DNA of 64,000 nucleotides from a virus: positions 12,802-76,801 of the IMG/VR virus record IMGVR_UViG_3300030110_002054; one strand, written 5' to 3'. Below the pieces are notes generated by a model. It made no database searches, was not told the DNA's origin, and was given only the letters and a program-made list of their open reading frames with translations. Of the stretch, positions 12,378-49,598 are shown piece after piece; within the stretch, counting starts at the first letter, position 1; each line of letters begins with the position of its first letter. The position numbers and the translations under genes are program-made.

Positions 12378-13006
12378 TCGATGTATGCCCCCATCACTTC
12401 TACCTCTTGTGTTGCAATACTCTCCCCTATGAGTTCAGGGTTAAGAATTGCATTGGTCACAGGCACGGCTTCAACACGTATCTGTTGCCTACCGGACATC
12501 TTGGTCATGGTCATGTCATTGATTTGTGCTGACACCTCATCTACGAGTTTGGCATGCTTCGCATACTTGTCCTTCCAGTGCTTGGCCAAGTCCTTGTCAG
12601 TGCTGATGGACATCTCAAGTCCTTCCTTGAGTGCCTCGGCAATACGTGTGTAGGCCGCTTTGCCCAACACACCTACCTCATCCGAACCCTCAGGCACTAG
12701 CATACCCACAATCATGTCCAACAGGATGTTCCTCTGTAGGGTGAGAGGCACTTTCATCGGTATCCTCTGCTCCCATCCGGCTTCCTTCCTGTATCCGTGC
12801 CCATGTGTCCTGCCTCCTGTGTGTGGCTCTGTCTGTATCATGACGGTCGAACCCGTCATCATATCCATGACCATTATCTCAGGGTCACTGAAGTACTCCT
12901 CACTATCATCATGGCGAGCCTTCTCCGCTTTCGTTATTATCGCTCCCAGTGATGCGAGTGCTTTACCCACACCATCTGTCCATTTCATCTGTTCTGCTTG
13001 TTTCAT
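12374..13006 (-). CDS. Hypothetical protein
   Basis: Start reassigned to MKQAEQ (13006), downstream of element copy 3 and a GGAG SD. Confidence 0.7.
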   Translation of the reverse strand: MKQAEQMKWTDGVGKALASLGAIITKAEKARHDDSEEYFSDPEIMVMDMMTGSTVMIQTEPHTGGRTHGHGYRKEAGWEQRIPMKVPLTLQRNILLDMIVGMLVPEGSDEVGVLGKAAYTRIAEALKEGLEMSISTDKDLAKHWKDKYAKHAKLVDEVSAQINDMTMTKMSGRQQIRVEAVPVTNAILNPELIGESIATQEVEVMGAYIE

Positions 13007-21649: not shown

Positions 21650-22372
21650 TTACTCTTCTTCGTTTTCTTTTCCTCCCTTCGGGACATATGTGGTTCTCCT
21701 GTATGCCCGCTTCTTGAGTTTCCTCTTCTCATGCTTGAGCATGGCAGATAACTCCATCTGTTCGGTTTCGATGGTTTCCATCATCCTCGCCATTCTGTCT
21801 AATCTCTGATTAAGCGCAGTTATACGAGGACTGACATCCGCTTGGATAGACTCCATCTTCTGAATGTTGGTATTCATACGACCATTCAAAGTAGCGATGC
21901 TACCTAGCACCTTATCCTTGAATGGAGTATCATCATCATTCATTGCCAATTCTATAGCCTTCGCTACCTGCTCATTGACTGCCTTCTTGAAGTGTTGAGT
22001 AGTTAGGAACCTGTCCCTAATTATCTCCTCTTCAGTAAAGGGATTAATCTCACTAGGAGAAGCATCATTACTTTCATGGTGGAAAGCCTGTCCTGCTACT
22101 GTTGAGAGTCTTATCTCAATCTCCTCTATTCTAGCAAGAGTCTTTGGTAATTCTGACATCTGAGTTGATACCCAAGTTTCCATCGCTTTGGCATTAGCCA
22201 CTTTGACATACTGGTTATTCATACCATCTCTGTCTCTAACTAGGCCGGACTTGTTTACTCTCACCCTGTGTTCTTCACAGAATTTAGGTTGCACCATTCC
22301 TGTTCTTACTACGAATGGCCGTTGGCACTTATGTCCGTCTTCCATTACAAATTCACATCTTTTTCTTATCAT
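21650..22372 (-). CDS. Zinc-finger plus coiled-coil protein
   Basis: C..C..C..H N-terminus (RCEF...KCQR...FCEEH), long coiled coil and basic tail. First gene of the left arm. Confidence 0.75.
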   Translation of the reverse strand: MIRKRCEFVMEDGHKCQRPFVVRTGMVQPKFCEEHRVRVNKSGLVRDRDGMNNQYVKVANAKAMETWVSTQMSELPKTLARIEEIEIRLSTVAGQAFHHESNDASPSEINPFTEEEIIRDRFLTTQHFKKAVNEQVAKAIELAMNDDDTPFKDKVLGSIATLNGRMNTNIQKMESIQADVSPRITALNQRLDRMARMMETIETEQMELSAMLKHEKRKLKKRAYRRTTYVPKGGKENEEE

Positions 22373-22429
22373 TCTTATTCCTCTAATATTGTTATGTTGA
22401 TGAGACTATATGAAGTGTCATCAATTTGA

Positions 22430-22960
22430 GTGTTTGGCAGGGGCGAACTACGCGCCGCATTACTCTTAGAACTCTCGATAGTATTCTAAGAAACCTACCT
22501 CAAGGGTTGGTATTAGCAACCTTACAGTTACGGAGAAGATATATGGGGGCTTCTCCGATTTGGTTGAGTGGTTATTGGGGGAGATGAACCGTGCTATGCC
22601 GTTAAGCGCAGGGATGCATACGATGCCGTGACTAGACATCATGGTTTTATTTATTGAAATGCTGACTACTGCTGAACCTTATGGTTCTTCTTATACCGGA
22701 CAGTAAGTTAAACATGCTCGATTAACTTAAGCAACTCCTCTCTCCAAGGATATCTCTCCCGACAACCGAAGTTGTGGGAAAAGAAGTATCCGAGTCGATG
22801 GTCAACCCTTGTATCTTCATTCATCTTTACTACTCAAACCCCAATTCCCGACTGTGCAAATCCTCCGCTAAGATTCATTGGTCACCACATTTGTGTCGAG
22901 TTGTTATTCTCATGTTTCTAACATGAGGATGATAAAACCGAAATGCCGTTTGAGTGGGGC
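22430..22960 (-). ncRNA. Candidate large structured non-coding RNA
   Basis: ORF-free stretch with many nested hairpins. One has a cUUCGg tetraloop on the minus strand (22747-22791). Boundaries are approximate. Confidence 0.4.
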
Positions 22961-22974
22961 TAACCTCGGTTTTC

Positions 22975-23300
22975 TTTGATTTTCTCATTATTCTCATTAT
23001 TCTCACTAGTTTTCTAGAGAGAGAGAGTATAGGTGTGTGTGGGGGGTATGTTGTTGTGTATAATGTATGTTAATAATGATAATATTGAGAATATTACTCT
23101 AAATCGTTCATACTACCCATTCACGCCTTTCGGTTCTCTCATATCCGTGAGAATATTGTGAGAGAACCAAACATAAGATGCTATCTTATGAATACCATAT
23201 ATATGATATTAGTATATATGATAGATATCTATACCTATATGGTATGATATGTGAGTCTTGATTTGACTGTGATACCAAGCCACATATATTGGTGGTTACG
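22975..23300. other. Putative replication origin / control region
   Basis: Lies at the strand-switch point. Has TGAGAATA-type iterons in opposite orientations (three tandem units at ~22982-23005; copies at ~23086 and ~23148), a (GA)n/(GT)n/G-run centre and an AT-rich tract at ~23190-23250. Confidence 0.45.
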
Positions 23301-23563
23301 AATAACTCCAATCACTTGTGTTCATTGATATGCTAGTTTGATTTCACATGCAGTCAAAGGAGGACTTTTTTCCTCAGTAAGTGCCTGTGACTACCCTATA
23401 TTAGGGTGGGGCGACACTTACCCCTACCCTGAATCATTTATCTCTTGATTGATTTAGCAACCATATGGTAGGACACTTTGTCGTAAAGACCCCATAGAGG
23501 GTTAATCAGGCCCATAGATGCTTTAGGAGGGTTGGTGAGACAACCTTACAGGAGGAAAACAAT

Positions 23564-24034
23564 ATGGAATGGCAAGAATTTACGGGAATGGTTACGACCT
23601 ACGCAAATGACAAGAAATCGGAGATAGACTCAGAGGATAAGACCTCTGTTCTCCGCCTCATAGAAAGAGGGAACGCAAATGAAAAGAAGCAAGCACGTTG
23701 CACTACTGCAATTAGGCTAATTATCGGAGACTACTCTGATAGCCCAACTAACAGTAGGGGCTTCTCGCTTCCAGATGATGCACAGGCAGTCGTTCAGTCT
23801 GCATATGATGCAATCGCTGGACTAGCATCCGTCTATAACGAGAACCCAGTTATAGCGGCTCTTCTTCTGCCTCACGGCAGGAGTACCGCTACTCACCTAG
23901 ATGGTGAGACATGGGCAAACCGAATGGTAAGCCACATGGAAGACACGGCTCGCTCGCTATACGAGAGCAAAACATGGGACGGTTCTGAGAAGAGCCTCGT
24001 TGCTACGGTGTCCTTCACCACGGAGGATAACTGA
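23564..24034 (+). CDS. Cassette 1 protein (paralog of cassette 4 protein)
   Basis: 156 aa with a GGAGG SD. Shares SVxxLIERGxxN...IR...SDxP...SLP with ORF 25315. Confidence 0.8.
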   Translation: MEWQEFTGMVTTYANDKKSEIDSEDKTSVLRLIERGNANEKKQARCTTAIRLIIGDYSDSPTNSRGFSLPDDAQAVVQSAYDAIAGLASVYNENPVIAALLLPHGRSTATHLDGETWANRMVSHMEDTARSLYESKTWDGSEKSLVATVSFTTEDN

Positions 24035-24248
24035 TTAGGCAATTTGCCTTCCCTCCTTTAGCACAGACTACTCAAGTCTTACATAGATAACAATCCGTAA
24101 GTCCTAGATGTGGTGGTAGTAATATCACTACCTAAATTCTCTAGGCTGGGTTGGGGCTATGGGGTTTGAAGCGACAAAGTGCCGAACCATATGGTAATGC
24201 ACACTTTGTCGTGACAGACCCCATATAGGTTGTAGGACAAACTAAGAC

Positions 24249-24437
24249 ATGGTTAACCTACAGAGAAGGCACTTCAGATGGCTTGCAGAGTTTGCAGTCA
24301 CGGCCCAACTAGATGAAGAACAACGAGAGCAATTGATTAATGCTTGTAGATATACAAACAGTAATTTTGATGCTGGCAGGATGAGAGAATACATGAAATC
24401 ACATCATAGGTTGATTTACATGTACGAAATGGAGTGA
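24249..24437 (+). CDS. Cassette 2 protein A
   Basis: 62 aa with the L.RRHF..LA...NSNFDAGR pattern seen in small phage proteins. Confidence 0.7.
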   Translation: MVNLQRRHFRWLAEFAVTAQLDEEQREQLINACRYTNSNFDAGRMREYMKSHHRLIYMYEME

Positions 24438-24446
24438 GGTGAGAAA

Positions 24447-24650
24447 GTGGAAAGTGAAAGAATAGTGAATGAAGCAATGAAAGTATATCAGTATGAGATT
24501 GATGTTGGTCACTCTAAGAGTGGTTCAAATCATGTCATCATTATCAAGAGCCTAAAGGTTCGGAGTGATGACCTTGCAAATGCAATACAGGAAATACAAG
24601 CAGCACTAAGGGCATTTAATGACCTTGGGGGCTGCCCTGATTGCAAATGA
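24447..24650 (+). CDS. Cassette 2 protein B
   Basis: 67 aa with a GAGGTGA SD and GTG start. Confidence 0.65.
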   Translation: MESERIVNEAMKVYQYEIDVGHSKSGSNHVIIIKSLKVRSDDLANAIQEIQAALRAFNDLGGCPDCK

Positions 24651-24764
24651 TGTTGTGGGGGCTATGCCCCTACTTCATCAGGGTGTTAGCGACAAAGTGC
24701 ATTACCATATGGTAAGTTACTTTGTGTTCACGCACCCCATATAGGGGGGTAACAGAGTATTACC

Positions 24765-25121
24765 ATGCAAGATGAGTTAAAACAAGCATATGTTGAAAGA
24801 AAGATGGAAGCAGACCCGAATATTCGGTTCTTCAAGGAGAATGAAGTTGGGGACATACATTTGGAGAGTATGATAGCAAGGCAGAAGGAAACCTATGAAA
24901 GGGAGTATGATTCTTCAATGGCCGCAGTCATGAATATCATGGAGGAGAACGGCATTGAGGAAGATGTCTTCTTCGGATTCGATGTAATCGTCAAAGACCT
25001 TCTGATGTCACTCGCTGAGGCAAATAGCGAGATGGAAGAGCGACTTGGAGATTGGGAATACTACGCTGACGAGTTGTATGACAACATCTCATCCGCAATC
25101 AGCGATGGTCGTCCTTGGTAA
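24765..25121 (+). CDS. Cassette 3 acidic protein
   Basis: 118 aa. The ATG is ~25 nt after CCCCATATAG, consistent with a leaderless transcript. Confidence 0.75.
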   Translation: MQDELKQAYVERKMEADPNIRFFKENEVGDIHLESMIARQKETYEREYDSSMAAVMNIMEENGIEEDVFFGFDVIVKDLLMSLAEANSEMEERLGDWEYYADELYDNISSAISDGRPW

Positions 25122-25314
25122 TCATCCAGCGGTAATAGCGGCTAGGGGGGAGAGAAAATGGCCTATTCTCTCCCTCCAACATCTTCGGGGTAACGTTGAC
25201 ACAAAGTAACTACTACCATATGGTATGATACTTTGTCATGGTCACCCCATATAGCCATCACACATACATTAACTGTCCGTGGAGGGCATTCCTAACAGGA
25301 AAGGAGATAATACA

Positions 25315-25920
25315 ATGGCAGAAAGAAATAAACAAGAACCAATGACAGATAGTAAGTGGAAAGAAAGCATAGTGCAGAAGTGGAAGAACTGGGTAAAGGA
25401 TAACCCGGATTGGGAGGACTACTATGACGGACTAATGAGTGTCCCTTCTCTAATTGAGAGAGGAACTAAGAACGCTGAGAAGAGGCGCAGAATAGCAACT
25501 GGTATCAGAACTTGCTTCATAGCGATGGAAGTAAGTGACAACCCATTTGCGGCAGGTGCTACTTCATCACTACCTGAGAAGGTCGAGAGAACCAAGACCA
25601 CCGAATTAGGTGAACTCAAAAAGGCATACATCAACTTCTGGAAAACATGTGCGCAAGCACGAAGGTATCTAGTAAAATCGAAGCGTGGCGGAGGGGGAGT
25701 TTTCTCCTCTGCTGAGGAATTCGCTCAGTATCAGATTGACCTATTGACCAACAAGTTGTCAGCCTACTACAACGACTTCGCAGATGGCAAGACCACCAAG
25801 GACTATCATTGGAAGGGAACCCAAACCGCACTCATCAACAATATACCCCTATTGAAGAAGGCGAAAGAAGCAGACGCAAAGAAGACCGAACAAGAAGAGG
25901 CCTCCAAGGAGGCTGAATAG
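25315..25920 (+). CDS. Cassette 4 protein (paralog of cassette 1 protein)
   Basis: Start reassigned to MAERNK after an AAGGAG SD. Similar to ORF 23564. Confidence 0.8.
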   Translation: MAERNKQEPMTDSKWKESIVQKWKNWVKDNPDWEDYYDGLMSVPSLIERGTKNAEKRRRIATGIRTCFIAMEVSDNPFAAGATSSLPEKVERTKTTELGELKKAYINFWKTCAQARRYLVKSKRGGGGVFSSAEEFAQYQIDLLTNKLSAYYNDFADGKTTKDYHWKGTQTALINNIPLLKKAKEADAKKTEQEEASKEAE

Positions 25921-25940
25921 GATTGTCTCCTCCACGGACA

Positions 25941-25952
25941 ACCCTTCGGGGT
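25941..25952 (+). terminator. cUUCGg hairpin at the 3' end of cassette 4
   Basis: ACCCTTCGGGGT. A similar GCCCCTTCGGGGC ends cassette 5 (~26852) and CTTCGG ends cassette 3 (~25183). Confidence 0.5.
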
Positions 25953-26035
25953 CTTTAATGGCAAAGCATACCAACCATATGGTAGGCTACTTTGTGCCTG
26001 ACTACCCCATATACCCCTAATTCCAGACTAAGCAT

Positions 26036-26842
26036 ATGGCAGACACAAGCGTGACATATGAAAGAACAATGAAAGTGACCTACCCTAGAGAAGGCGGTAG
26101 GTTATCATCTAAACTGATAAGGAGACTTCAGCAGATGTTGACAACCTTTGGGATATACATGGTGTATAGATGTGGTTGGGGAGAACCCGACTACAGTTCC
26201 TATGAGGAAGTCGAGAAGACGGAAACCAAGAGGTCTTACAAACTGACCTCGGATGAATCTGACTACGAGATAGTAGATTTCGGAGTAGTCGATTCGACCT
26301 ACGAGCGAAGTGGTATGAAGAAAATCGTCAATGCCCTAAATGACTATGCTAGGTCGATGCCCGGTCTATCTCTGGATGAAACGGTAGTCACCACATCTAC
26401 TATGGAACTCCCAAGATGGAAAGGAGATGCGATTTGGATTAACGGTCTAGAAGAACCTCAAGTCATGATGAACCGTGACTATGGCGGAAGCCGAATGACT
26501 TGGGCAGATGAAACCGATGAAACGGATATGACCAAGATGGAAGTATTGCTAGACCCCAGCACTAGCAATGATTCAGCAATCTTGACCTTCAAGATTTGGA
26601 AGGAGGCAACCAAGACGCAGAACAAGAAAGACATCGAGACATGGTTGGTAGATACCCCATTAGATTTGATGGGAGAGATACAGGCTCACATAGAAACGTG
26701 TCTGTCTGATGTGGGCTTCGACATCACCGAGCCAGTCATTGACTGTCACTTCGATGCGAAGACAGAAAGCCGAAGCGAGTGCGCCCCTGATATCATCGGG
26801 CGACTTCGTGACGCCAAACAACGGACGATTGACAACCAATAG
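26036..26842 (+). CDS. Cassette 5 protein
   Basis: 268 aa. The ATG is ~25 nt after CCCCATATA. Confidence 0.8.
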   Translation: MADTSVTYERTMKVTYPREGGRLSSKLIRRLQQMLTTFGIYMVYRCGWGEPDYSSYEEVEKTETKRSYKLTSDESDYEIVDFGVVDSTYERSGMKKIVNALNDYARSMPGLSLDETVVTTSTMELPRWKGDAIWINGLEEPQVMMNRDYGGSRMTWADETDETDMTKMEVLLDPSTSNDSAILTFKIWKEATKTQNKKDIETWLVDTPLDLMGEIQAHIETCLSDVGFDITEPVIDCHFDAKTESRSECAPDIIGRLRDAKQRTIDNQ

Positions 26843-26979
26843 TCCCCTTTGCGCCCTTCGGGGCCATCGGGGTTCATTTGCACAAAGTAACATACAACCA
26901 TATGGCTTTGCTTCCAAATTTTTTTTCTTTCTATATGCCCACAAACAAGTTAATGGTCTAATGCTCACCCGCCACGCAT

Positions 26980-27198
26980 GTGGCTAATGAGGATTCGCAA
27001 CTTGAAATATACAAAGAAGCCACAAGAATAGTTAAGGACATACAGGAAGAGGTATCTAACATCCAAACTATGGGGAGGTTAGATTCTAAGTTAAACAAGA
27101 TGCTTAACAGAATTAAAGCAGATACAAAACAACTACTCAAGGAGATAAGAAGTAAGGTGTTTCACCAAACTAGCATAGATGATTGGGGTGGAGATTAA
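26980..27198 (+). CDS. Small helical protein with a C-terminal PIP-box-like motif
   Basis: Ends FHQTSIDDWGGD. Confidence 0.6.
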   Translation: MANEDSQLEIYKEATRIVKDIQEEVSNIQTMGRLDSKLNKMLNRIKADTKQLLKEIRSKVFHQTSIDDWGGD

Positions 27199-46982: not shown

Positions 46983-49598
46983 GTGAATATGCCTCAGTCC
47001 GGTATAGAGTTTGAAAAGAAAGAAAACGCAATGACAAAGCGTGTTCTTGATTTTTTTGAGAGAGTGCGTTATGCATATCTATCTGCTAAGGATGACCCCG
47101 AAGAATACAGAAAGAAATGGGTTAAGGCAATTGAAGACATCAAAGGGGAATTCGATGACATTTCTGATTTCTCTAGAGAATTAAAAGAATACCTAAAGGA
47201 AAAAACACTTTTTTCCGAAGAAGCCAAAGACCCCACTACTAGGCAAGCCAAGGAAGTATATGACTCAATTAAAGAAATGCGATTTGAGTCTAAGGGAGTT
47301 AGTGACCCATTCTCTAAACAGTTAGGTGATGAAGTCATACCCACGCTTTTAGAAAATAAACACACGTTTGCCGCATTCATTCACTATGCAATGCGCTCAC
47401 ATTCCAATGCAATACCTGAGAAGGCTTGGCAAAAATACAAATTACCAGCCGATGAACTAACACAGGGATTCATGGGATTAGATTTAGAGGAGCGTGATAT
47501 TCCTCTCTACATTACAGAACACTATGGTAATGATGAAACTGATAGTAGAAGAATCAAAACCAAGTTTAAGGAAGCCTTCAAGATTCTAGAAAAAGTATTC
47601 AATGGTCAATATGAGGAAGAAGATTGGGAGAATCTCGTTGAATTGGATTTACAGAAATCAGAAAAGAGCGCAGATGAAAAAGCAGAAATTGATTTTATCG
47701 TTCCCAACAAGCCAATGTATCGTATCTTTGAGATTGCGGATTTGAAGAAACTCAAGGGGTTCACAGGCGAATGGGTAGTTCAAGAGAAATACGATGGCAT
47801 GAGAATACAAATACACAAGACAGATGGTAATGTGAAAGTTTACTCCTACAATGAAAAGGACATTACTGACAAGTGTAAGAAACAAGTTGCTCAAATGGAA
47901 AAAAAGCAGTTTGGTGATTGTATTCTAGATGCTGAACTATTATTGTTTGATGGTGATGAGGCACTACATCGTGCTGCAACTGTTACCCACATCTTCAAGA
48001 AAGAAACGAAGCATAGTCTAAGAGCGCACGTTTTTGACATAATGAATCACGAAGGAAAGTCTATTGCAGACGAACCACTCAAAGAAAGAATAAACATTCT
48101 CTTCTATCAATATGGTCAACACTCTTCTGAGGATTTGGCATTCCCATCAAAGAAAGATACGCGACTTGCTGATTCTCTTGATGAGGTCGAGGAGTATTCA
48201 AAGAAAATTATGGAAATGCCAACTTCAGAAGGAGTGGTAATCAAGGACATGGAATCAACCTATTACATCGGAAATAGAAAGAACCCGAAGTGGGTTAAGT
48301 GGAAGAAGTTCGTAGACTTAGATGTAATAGTCTTAGATGTCAAGAAAACCAAAAGTAACCTTCATTCCTACTCATTGGGCATAGGGCCACTATCAGGAGA
48401 AGAGACTAGAGAATACAAGACTCAAGAAATTGATGGGAAAGCATACATGCCCGTAGGTAAGGCAATGAATACTAAAACCAAAGTCAAGGTTGGAGACATC
48501 GTTAGAGTAAAGGTAGATGAGGTCAAGAAAGGAAAGAATGATTTCAAACTAATTTCTGCTCAAGTGATAGAACTACCTGAAGTAGAAACTACTGATAAAA
48601 TTGAGACACTTGAAGAATTAGCCACGAAGACAAAGAAATCCTTAGATTCGGGAATGCACTATGTTTTCGGAGATAAGATAGGCGACTTGTTCAAACCTGA
48701 TACTGGCCTCGATAAAAGTCTCCATATCACCGACCACGTTCATGGCATAGCAGAAGTCATTCTAAAGGGTGAATTGGATGGTTTCACCATTTATGGTTTC
48801 AAGGGTGATTCGCTGATGGCGAAGAATGCTCTTTACGATATTGAAAAATGGAAGGATGACCTTACTGGAATTTTGAAGACAAAGCGTTCTGAATTAAGAA
48901 TAGGCATCCGTAATGAAATCATAGAAAGAGGAAAGCCATTGAACATTGACAAGATAGAAGAATTCGTTGTAACGAACTATCCCAAGACATATGATGAATT
49001 GTATAATTCTGATGATGGCCGCTTAATGTCATGGCTGAAACAACAGGAAGACCTAATCTATGAGCATCCAAATAAGTTCGATGCCAAGAAGGATGTGCTT
49101 GAGAAGGATGTTGAGATAAAGAAAAGACAAGAGACTAACAAGTTCGATGACAAATCTAGCAACCTCGGTGAATTTTCTGTTGTTCTAACAGATGATAATA
49201 ACCTTAACTTAATTATCAATTACAGAGATAAGAAGATGGCTTGGCTATTGGATATAGAAGATAGTGAAGACATATACAACTTATTTGGTAAGTCAGGTAA
49301 ATTCCCTGCTATGGTATTAGACAAAGTGGGAACTGCGAAAAAAACCATAGATAAGGGGGAACTTGAGATAGGGGTACAAAGAAATGGTTATCATGAATAT
49401 AGACTAGATGGCAATAAGTTCCAAACTAGATTGCATATACGAATAGTCCCACTTAATGAGCAAAAAAGATGGTTGGCATGGACTGGAAAGAAACAGGAAA
49501 TGCTAGACCGCAAGGCAGATGATGGTGTTTGGGACATTACTGAAGATAAGTATGCAGATGTAGAGTTACCTCCATCTGAAAACGAAGACGCTAAATAG
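46983..49598 (+). CDS. Multidomain ATP-dependent DNA ligase located in the head module
   Basis: Motif I QEKYDGMR, ILDAEL, HVFDI, SEGVVIKD, WVKWK..DLDVIV and an OB domain. Additional N-terminal domain and a C-terminal LigD phosphoesterase-like domain. Confidence 0.9.
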   Translation: MNMPQSGIEFEKKENAMTKRVLDFFERVRYAYLSAKDDPEEYRKKWVKAIEDIKGEFDDISDFSRELKEYLKEKTLFSEEAKDPTTRQAKEVYDSIKEMRFESKGVSDPFSKQLGDEVIPTLLENKHTFAAFIHYAMRSHSNAIPEKAWQKYKLPADELTQGFMGLDLEERDIPLYITEHYGNDETDSRRIKTKFKEAFKILEKVFNGQYEEEDWENLVELDLQKSEKSADEKAEIDFIVPNKPMYRIFEIADLKKLKGFTGEWVVQEKYDGMRIQIHKTDGNVKVYSYNEKDITDKCKKQVAQMEKKQFGDCILDAELLLFDGDEALHRAATVTHIFKKETKHSLRAHVFDIMNHEGKSIADEPLKERINILFYQYGQHSSEDLAFPSKKDTRLADSLDEVEEYSKKIMEMPTSEGVVIKDMESTYYIGNRKNPKWVKWKKFVDLDVIVLDVKKTKSNLHSYSLGIGPLSGEETREYKTQEIDGKAYMPVGKAMNTKTKVKVGDIVRVKVDEVKKGKNDFKLISAQVIELPEVETTDKIETLEELATKTKKSLDSGMHYVFGDKIGDLFKPDTGLDKSLHITDHVHGIAEVILKGELDGFTIYGFKGDSLMAKNALYDIEKWKDDLTGILKTKRSELRIGIRNEIIERGKPLNIDKIEEFVVTNYPKTYDELYNSDDGRLMSWLKQQEDLIYEHPNKFDAKKDVLEKDVEIKKRQETNKFDDKSSNLGEFSVVLTDDNNLNLIINYRDKKMAWLLDIEDSEDIYNLFGKSGKFPAMVLDKVGTAKKTIDKGELEIGVQRNGYHEYRLDGNKFQTRLHIRIVPLNEQKRWLAWTGKKQEMLDRKADDGVWDITEDKYADVELPPSENEDAK

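Follow-up and report, generated by a model that had tools for sequence, protein, structure and literature searches.

What is a row of small genes, joined end to end at one short palindrome, doing in a marine viral genome, and by what means do its members change places? The array in question occupies positions 23460-26906 of the stretch of DNA that we analyzed, 64,000 nucleotides (nt) of the IMG/VR virus record IMGVR_UViG_3300030110_002054 (positions 12,802 to 76,801 of that record), which we call the window. A first, sequence-only reading had proposed an integron-like system that captures or shuffles genes through the palindromic core ACCATATGGT. The reading to which we give slightly better than even credence is that these are mobile promoter/terminator cassettes in a hyperplastic region, resembling the T4-type promoter-early stem-loop (PeSL) cassettes, in an archaeal form undescribed for magroviruses.

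As we picture it, the region would be a hyperplastic block of early or accessory genes, with the replication module on one side and the late structural module on the other. Each cassette would be an autonomous archaeal unit in which a transcription factor B recognition element (BRE) and TATA box (ACC-YY-ATATA) stand about 26 nt ahead of the start, the open reading frame (ORF) is leaderless or led by a Shine-Dalgarno site, and the 3' end carries a GC hairpin, in many cases with a TTCG loop, and then a T-rich stretch. The junction module would comprise a terminator arm, the 10-bp palindrome and a promoter arm, with one outward CTTTG-loop hairpin per arm. Some 30 nt upstream of the TATA box (about -56 from the start), the core would probably be the site of a dimeric DNA-binding regulator. 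Comparison among relatives shows the module, by virtue of its many copies in both orientations, to be the preferred crossover point; most crossovers fall in the perfectly conserved core, others at the edges of the module. Crossovers in modules would therefore reorder cassettes, invert them singly, duplicate them into a multigene family and replace them, and no dedicated recombinase would be needed, as in the T4-type cassettes.

Array architecture and rearrangement among relatives

A renewed scan of the window returned the six cores, five cassette sizes, ORFs and 3' hairpins that the sequence-only reading had listed. Exact copies of ACCATATGGT start at 23460, 24186, 24704, 25215 and 25974, and a variant, ACCATATGGC, starts at 26897; these junctions, J1 to J6, split the region into five cassettes, c1 to c5, of 726, 518, 511, 759 and 923 bp. 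No further exact copy occurs elsewhere in the whole 76.8 kb record, and a search allowing at most one mismatch gave 11 matches against 1.9 expected, a count that 0 of 100 shuffles equaled. Each cassette follows one plan: a promoter arm, one or two plus-strand ORFs, a GC-rich 3' hairpin (with a TTCG loop in three of the five) and a terminator arm. The promoter arm reads core, N5-7, ACTTTGT, N9, CCCCATA(T/G)A (CCCCATAKA), and the terminator arm, upstream of the next core, is a degenerate inverted copy (∼30 nt) of the promoter arm of the same cassette. Both ACTTTGT-N9-CCCCATA and CCCCATAKA are found in the array only. Four of the six junctions run from a hairpin-type arm through the core into a promoter arm; J2 has a TATA-like arm on both sides, and the outer arm is absent at J1 and J6, where the array ends.

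The same module recurs in many viral contigs. The composite motif ACCATATGGT-N4-8-ACTTTGT matches at least 119 IMG/VR contig stretches, and among the matches listed there are 561 exact cores in 1.16 Mb, against ∼1 expected, with up to 13 per array; the family-wide arm, pairing and distance statistics given below were taken over related contigs among these matches. In coding cassettes, CTTTG, read outward from the core, is present in 85% of promoter arms and 87% of terminator arms. The arms tend to small hairpins with CTTTG in the loop, a perfect stem of at least 5 bp being found in 22.5%, compared with 4.0% in a null of chimeric arms, and the base pair flanking CTTTG shows co-variation, being A..T or G..C. 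From the core centre to the TATA box downstream the distance is 27-32 nt, with a mode of 30. Some relatives additionally carry non-coding mini-cassettes, with 94-150 nt between cores (L101 1180-3150; L020 4734-7010; L061 9130-10800), the arms of which belong to a second hairpin type, nnCAC-GCTTA-GTGnn (ACGCTTAGT); scans of these mini-cassettes found no tRNA inside.

Cassette order is fluid. In the nearest relative (L022, ∼75% identity) the order is c1, c4, c2, c3-like, c5, promoter arms are re-assorted relative to genes, and the c2/c3 junction, identical over 32 nt, stands between a c1-type gene and the c4 gene. Two relatives that share 90% identity (L020 and L061) differ by re-ordered and singly inverted cassettes whose ends lie at the cores, one of them degenerate. 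A homologous neighbour is kept by 58% of cassette orthologues at ≥80% amino acid identity and by 14% at 60-80%, and both orientations are present in 43 of 99 arrays. Between close relatives, near-core homology ends peak just beyond the core centre, with 61 of 189 at 0-10 nt and none in the preceding 25 nt; this peak is inflated by BLAST alignments, which inevitably cross the conserved core before stopping. Further humps lie 30-70 nt to either side, at the module edges (TATA box, terminator). The array adjoins a Dda-like helicase in 20 related loci and a late-module gene of 387 amino acids (aa) in 24, with both present in at least five. The proposal that exchange passes through the core thus survives in part: homology often stops there, but crossovers also lie at the module edges, and the c2/c3 junction has moved whole.

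Transcription units, cassette genes and the virus

The features of the array, in window coordinates and with the strand where one applies, are as follows.

23388-23403, plus: promoter-like box TGACTACCCTATATTA, ∼60 nt upstream of J1; J1 lies in no RNA contig
23460-23469: core J1, ACCATATGGT; the array opens, and the left flank has no CAAAG arm
23470-23498, plus: c1 promoter arm, AGGAC-ACTTTGT-N9-CCCCATAGA (BRE/TATA); predicted start 23520, equal to an RNA contig start
23564-24034, plus: c1 ORF, 156 aa, with an AGGAGG ribosome-binding site; c1/c4 multigene family
24153-24185, minus: c1 terminator arm, an inverted promoter-arm copy that includes ACCCCATAG
24186-24195: core J2 (c1/c2), the strongest real palindrome (-18.9 kcal/mol, z -4.7)
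24196-24227, plus: c2 promoter arm; TATA + 26 nt is the ATG at 24249
24249-24650, plus: c2 ORFs of 62 aa (24249-24437) and 67 aa (24447-24650)
24672-24703, minus: c2 terminator arm, AATGCAC-TTTGTCG.., with the hairpin GGGGC-TAT-GCCCC just before it
24704-24713: core J3 (c2/c3), in the 32-nt junction shared with L022, where other genes surround it
24714-24743, plus: c3 promoter arm; TATA + 26 nt is the ATG at 24765
24765-25121, plus: c3 ORF, 118 aa; RNA contigs 24774-25044 and 24783-25047
25186-25214, minus: c3 terminator arm, AGTAGTTACTTTGTGT..ACCCCGAAG
25215-25224: core J4 (c3/c4)
25225-25253, plus: c4 promoter arm; predicted start 25275, equal to an RNA contig start
25315-25920, plus: c4 ORF, 201 aa, a c1 paralogue with a helical model
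25944-25973, minus: c4 terminator arm; on the mRNA strand an ACCC-TTCG-GGGT hairpin, TCTTT, then GGCAAAGC
25974-25983: core J5 (c4/c5)
25984-26013, plus: c5 promoter arm; TATA + 27 nt is the ATG at 26036
26036-26842, plus: c5 ORF, 268 aa
26865-26896, minus: c5 terminator arm, with the hairpin GCCC-TTCG-GGGC just before it
26897-26906: core J6, ACCATATGGC; the array closes, the final C begins CTTTG, and the nearest relative has the same variant

The box CCCCATATA is an archaeal BRE/TATA box, with an ATG or the end of an RNA contig 26 nt downstream; the sequence-only reading had called it TATA-like, and both the ATG spacing and the contig starts agree. Measured in 137 related cassettes from the TATA box (the first A of ATA in CC-YY-ATA), the distance to the first ATG has a sharp peak at 24-27 nt (45 cassettes), and a second class, in which a GGAGG-like site often precedes the ATG, lies at 60-76 nt. 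Within the window the distance is 26 nt in c2 and c3 and 27 nt in c5, while c1 and c4 have leaders of ∼45 nt with AGGAGG-type sites. We take the c2 mRNA to be leaderless because TATA + 26 nt coincides with its ATG. In a metatranscriptome assembly, c1, c3, c4 and c5 are covered by separate RNA contigs, and no RNA contig was seen to span any core or arm. The c1 and c4 contigs start at exactly TATA + 26 nt, an assembled contig end being a hint, not proof, of a transcription start. Promoter-type arms stand at ORF starts and hairpin-type arms, ACCCCGAAGGGT (mRNA strand CCC-TTCG-GGG), at ORF ends. The description of the cassettes as self-contained is thereby upheld in the sense of separate transcription units, each with its own promoter and terminator. 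A Bacteroidota-type promoter (TTTG at -33, TAnnTTTG at -7) was considered and rejected, given the lack of a -7 box, the wrong spacing and the many Shine-Dalgarno genes. We also observed, in the ORF-poor stretch 22645-22886, metatranscriptome contigs of 204-245 nt with depths of 63 and 21, against 3-26 for cassette genes; this depth is the highest in the region and likely marks an abundant small non-coding RNA, one without an Rfam match, as a search of 22300-27100 returned no family.

None of the cassette proteins has a match in Pfam or PHROG. The c1 and c4 proteins are members of a multigene family that numbers 107 proteins in 78 related loci, several of them often in one array. Proteins of this family are helical, and the AlphaFold model of c4 has a predicted local distance difference test (pLDDT) score of 83; searches with its fold in Foldseek and VIA gave generic helical matches only (Z ≤6.1), and a PDB profile search with c4 gave nothing significant. 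The family is a good candidate for an arms-race gene family. By eye, a family of 67-aa proteins in 11 relatives resembles the 67-aa ORF of c2, which was not itself clustered, and a family in 17 relatives resembles the C-terminus of the 268-aa ORF of c5. The gene capture that the sequence-only reading had allowed for finds no support in this content: the cassette genes are a recurring family set dominated by one multigene family, not captured foreign genes.

As to the virus, the minus strand of 1-21500 encodes a family-B DNA polymerase (PolB), an RFC-like clamp-loader ATPase and two helicases; the large late genes are on the plus strand, with an ATP-dependent DNA ligase domain in an 871-aa protein (46983-49598). 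A ligase within the structural module is a peculiarity of magroviruses (Philosof 2017, PMC5434244), which are tailed viruses of ∼100 kb that infect Marine Group II archaea (PMC5434244). The best PolB matches among cultured viruses are haloarchaeal tailed viruses, complete relatives measure about 96-103 kb, and the window sequence is present in marine metagenomes from 11 studies. Because of the ligase in the late block, the PolB matches, the size of the relatives and the marine occurrence, the window most likely comes, judging from gene content and distribution, from a magrovirus-like tailed virus with Marine Group II archaea as hosts. A search of 596 Gb of cellular genomes with the composite motif gave chance-level single matches, except for contigs in one flavobacterial metagenome-assembled genome (MAG), and three archaeal MAGs reached through such chance single matches show no core enrichment. 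Two contigs, L204 (NZ_NZTP01000027.1) and G008:C18:27801-30936, with 6 and 5 cores, are binned in an Altibacter (Flavobacteriaceae) MAG and are probably mis-binned viral contigs. A nucleotide search of cultured phage records with the array region found no match, a literature search for the core sequence found primers only, and the magrovirus paper (PMC5434244) makes no mention of promoters or repeats.

Two neighbours of the array deserve a note. Between the divergent replication genes and the array lies an AT-rich block of short repeats (22975-23260), with inverted copies of ATTCTCATTATTCTCA at 22979-23094 and tandem ATATGATA-type repeats plus a core-like CCTATATGGTATGATA at 23189-23250; it may be an origin or packaging region. 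Adjoining the non-coding region before the array, the minus strand of 21650-22372 encodes a 240-aa protein with an N-terminal Cys/His cluster, a coiled coil and a basic tail, which has weak homologues beside the arrays of 7 relatives and, by these sequence features, may be a DNA-binding regulator.

Matching of cassette ends and competing explanations

One claim of the sequence-only reading was that arms co-vary within a cassette and not across a junction. In the window, the true pairing of ends has the lowest summed hairpin energy of all 120 permutations. The mean stands at -17.0 kcal/mol when the two ends of one cassette are paired, at -12.2 across real junctions and at -11.8 for the remaining combinations; judged by plain similarity, 3 of the 120 permutations equal the true pairing. 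Pairing is strong in c2 and c3, good in c1, and weak in c4 and c5. Over 359 related cassettes, same-cassette ends average -9.07 kcal/mol versus -7.84 for other pairings (p ∼1e-8), and real junctions average -6.97, significantly weaker than random pairings, so strong palindromes seem to be avoided there. Family-wide similarity tests of same-cassette ends agree (p ∼1e-17): identity of at least 70% over 10 variable positions around CTTTG is reached by 11.6% of pairs from one cassette, compared with 3.5% of controls and 2.0% of pairs taken across a junction, the surplus identity being located 2-3 nt before and 2-4 nt after CTTTG. For 29.5% of cassettes the best partner is their own other end, where 21.3% is expected. 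The matching is real but moderate, the window is an unusually clear case, and the claim is borne out in both data sets at that strength. Exchange between the two inverted arms of one cassette, by recombination or gene conversion, may keep them alike, and long perfect palindromes at real junctions may be selected against.

The sequence-only reading had also said what would speak against it, namely a fixed gene order among relatives with breakpoints away from the cores, and pairing within cassettes no better than between them. We find neither, because the relatives differ in order, orientation and content, with homology often ending at cores, and because a cassette's own ends pair better.

Several points nevertheless weigh against PeSL-like cassettes. 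A plain PeSL model does not predict matching of same-cassette arms, and the gene conversion that would account for it is a step that we infer. At 10 bp, the core is a short substrate for ordinary homologous recombination, and yet ∼40% of near-core homology ends lie exactly at it. We identified no core-binding regulator, and the core-to-CTTTG spacing of 3-9 nt is awkward for one rigid protein complex. The archaeal host is likewise inferred, and the two contigs in the flavobacterial MAG carry core arrays. Finally, arms with conserved loops and co-varying stems suggest structure-specific recognition of a kind that is typical of single-strand recombinases.

Those arms lead to the explanation that survives best after our own, a dedicated site-specific system of integron- or shufflon-like type, which we consider unlikely. 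An unrecognized recombinase, viral or host, would exchange strands inside the palindromic core, perhaps reading CTTTG hairpins in single-stranded or extruded DNA; the ends of a circular cassette would form a good hairpin, and because the core is symmetric, both excision/integration and inversion would be possible. We keep it in play because a structure-reading recombinase would leave the same palindrome, hairpin arms, end matching and inversions. It would accommodate the strict conservation of the 10-bp palindrome in hundreds of copies, the one-sided peak of homology ends (0-10 nt past the core centre, none 0-25 nt before), the in-place inversion of single cassettes between 90%-identity genomes, the pairing results (best of 120 permutations; p ∼1e-8 family-wide), the conserved loops (CTTTG, and GCTTA in the second type) with their co-varying stems, and a weak surplus of G-T mismatches relative to A-C ones on the CTTTG strand (13 to 0). 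It does not readily accommodate crossovers at the TATA box and terminator edges, the transfer of a whole junction intact, an operator-like core at a set distance from each promoter, or an end effect as moderate as the one we measured.

Nor did searches supply an enzyme. In this record and four 100%-complete relatives we found no tyrosine recombinase (PF00589, which matched 14 of 14 control genomes), no serine recombinase and no protelomerase of the ResT/TelK type (PF16684), and no Y1 HUH transposase (PF01797) above threshold, with a single sub-threshold match of 15 bits in one relative. Rad51/RadA Pfam models also gave no match, which is not evidence of absence because the RadA-like protein of magroviruses is reportedly detectable only by profile-profile methods (PMC5434244). 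In two other studies, DNA contigs span every one of the six junctions, with the cassettes in the window order. No inversion or excision was seen in the contigs examined, which cannot reveal rare variants; one weak joint, 26793 to 26894, comes from one contig whose shorter side has 30 nt, and the loose contig ends at J6 belong to other viruses. The 34-mers expected at c2 and c3 circle junctions had 0 matches in metagenome and viral contigs, a result that says nothing because even the real J3 junction turns up in just one other contig. The lack of any detected recombinase in five genomes, the cassettes' own promoters and the same arrangement in two further studies speak against the integron-like system first proposed. 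A more specific form, a new magrovirus system of cassette exchange and inversion in which the unrecognized recombinase reads CTTTG-loop hairpins and cuts mid-ACCATATGGT, so that a cassette's ends become the attC-like hairpin of a circle, strikes us as a little unlikelier again.

Purely regulatory repeats come after this, and we regard them as improbable. The modules would be operators, promoters and terminators and nothing else, the rearrangements ordinary divergence, and the core a conserved island. Core and CTTTG do stand at positions typical of activator or repressor sites upstream of the BRE/TATA box, every cassette is transcribed on its own, and the run-through of BLAST alignments over the core inflates the homology-end peak as this explanation would have it. 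It is hard to reconcile, however, with cassettes that change order or invert in place, their ends at cores, between sequences of 75-90% nucleotide identity, and also with the very fast loss of synteny relative to protein divergence, the equal frequency of CTTTG in terminator and promoter arms, and an end matching that has no regulatory rationale.

Two further possibilities are very improbable. In a role at the RNA level, read-through transcripts would pair cassette ends, and cassettes would be cut out, perhaps circularized, as RNAs; the ends are indeed complementary with 1-3 nt bulges, archaeal rRNAs are processed via flanking inverted repeats, and there is a promoter-like box upstream of J1, but no RNA contig lies over a core or arm, contig ends fit TATA + 26 nt, each promoter arm is upstream of its own TATA box, and end differences show no excess of sense-strand G-U-compatible changes (175 vs 202). 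An RNA panhandle is disfavored for the same reasons, the absence of G-U bias between the ends together with RNA contigs that never cross cores. Tandem non-autonomous transposons with TGGT...ACCA ends, a central TA target-site duplication and insertion beside an existing end would fit the inverted CTTTG ends on nearly all coding cassettes, a core readable as ACCA-TA-TGGT and the movement of cassettes as units, but a Y1 HUH transposase was not found (the DDE type was not searched for), the array is at one genomic site with no core copies elsewhere in this record, and the ends serve also as promoter and terminator parts.

Significance and comparison with known systems

In the surface ocean, few archaeal viruses are as abundant as magroviruses; both these viruses and their hosts are uncultured. 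Our results provide the first explicit promoter model for magroviruses and, by implication, for Marine Group II: ACC-YY-ATATA, a start at +26 nt and many leaderless mRNAs. They also outline a sequence-defined mechanism for rapid turnover of early genes, probably with host-takeover or anti-defence roles and including the 107-member family, and the sharply defined 10-bp site is a direct handle for seeking the protein that binds it. If the core is truly a recombination site, the array would represent a new class of gene-cassette system, an archaeal-virus counterpart of the integron with a centre-cut architecture.

Integrons share with the array the arrangement of small gene units, ends that pair as an imperfect hairpin with bulged bases, and an order and content that vary among relatives with breakpoints at the recombination site or core. 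They differ in having an adjacent intI tyrosine recombinase, whereas no integrase was detected here with PF00589; in promoterless cassettes served by a common Pc promoter, where each cassette here has its own BRE/TATA box; and in an attC that lies whole at the 3' end of the cassette and is crossed over at one of its own ends, where the pairing partners here are a cassette's two opposite ends and the palindrome is split at its centre between neighbours. The genes here are also a recurring viral family set. The DNA invertase systems (shufflons, Hin/Gin) likewise have segments bounded by inverted sites and present in both orientations, but here no serine or tyrosine invertase was found, and the contigs examined show no population switching. 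IS200/IS605 elements combine a Y1 HUH transposase with sub-terminal hairpins in direct orientation; the hairpins here are inverted, and PF01797 gave no match above threshold. Systems in which a protelomerase cuts a palindrome at its centre rely on a resolvase of the ResT/TelK type, for which PF16684 gave no match here.

The sequence-only reading held that known analogues lack this architecture, but closer ones exist, in the T4-type PeSLs and in a PeSL-like motif of the haloarchaeal virus HGTV-1. The latter, a TATA plus inverted-repeat motif that its authors likened to PeSLs (Sencilo et al. 2013, as cited in PMC3950731), occurs in NC_021328 at 128703-141768 as ∼19 copies of TTTATATACC..CTCCTCGTG(C)CACGAGGAGTA..CTATAAAAAGG, 300-1700 nt apart, two of them in opposite orientation, with only the right (promoter-side) half of the palindrome well conserved. 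HGTV-1, too, is an archaeal tailed virus in which a central palindrome flanked by TATA boxes precedes small ORFs in one genome arm. Its sequence, CTCCTCGTG(C)CACGAGGAG, is unrelated, ACCATATGGT is not enriched there, and the part of the text that we drew on reports no comparative evidence of shuffling, hairpin arms or end matching.

The T4-type PeSL cassettes (Arbiol et al. 2010, PMC2839356; Comeau et al. 2014, PMC4122927) are the closer likeness. There, as here, small genes of unknown function are punctuated by a recurring composite promoter/terminator motif and occupy a hyperplastic region flanked by conserved modules (here the helicase side and the side of the 387-aa gene), with motif-bounded insertions, deletions and swaps between close relatives; no dedicated recombinase is involved there, and none was detected here. 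The PeSL has a sigma-70 early promoter and a T4-like genome, where the present array has archaeal BRE/TATA boxes and magrovirus-like genes, which makes it an analogue and not a member. Excised mini-circles in infected cells are a further mark of the PeSL cassettes. Relative to PeSLs, the array alone has a 10-bp palindrome that is strictly conserved and bordered symmetrically by CTTTG hairpin arms, and it alone shows single-cassette inversion, end matching and real junctions that avoid strong palindromes. The strict palindrome, the hairpin arms with conserved loops, the matching of ends and the inversion of single cassettes are what takes this array beyond its PeSL and HGTV-1 precedents.

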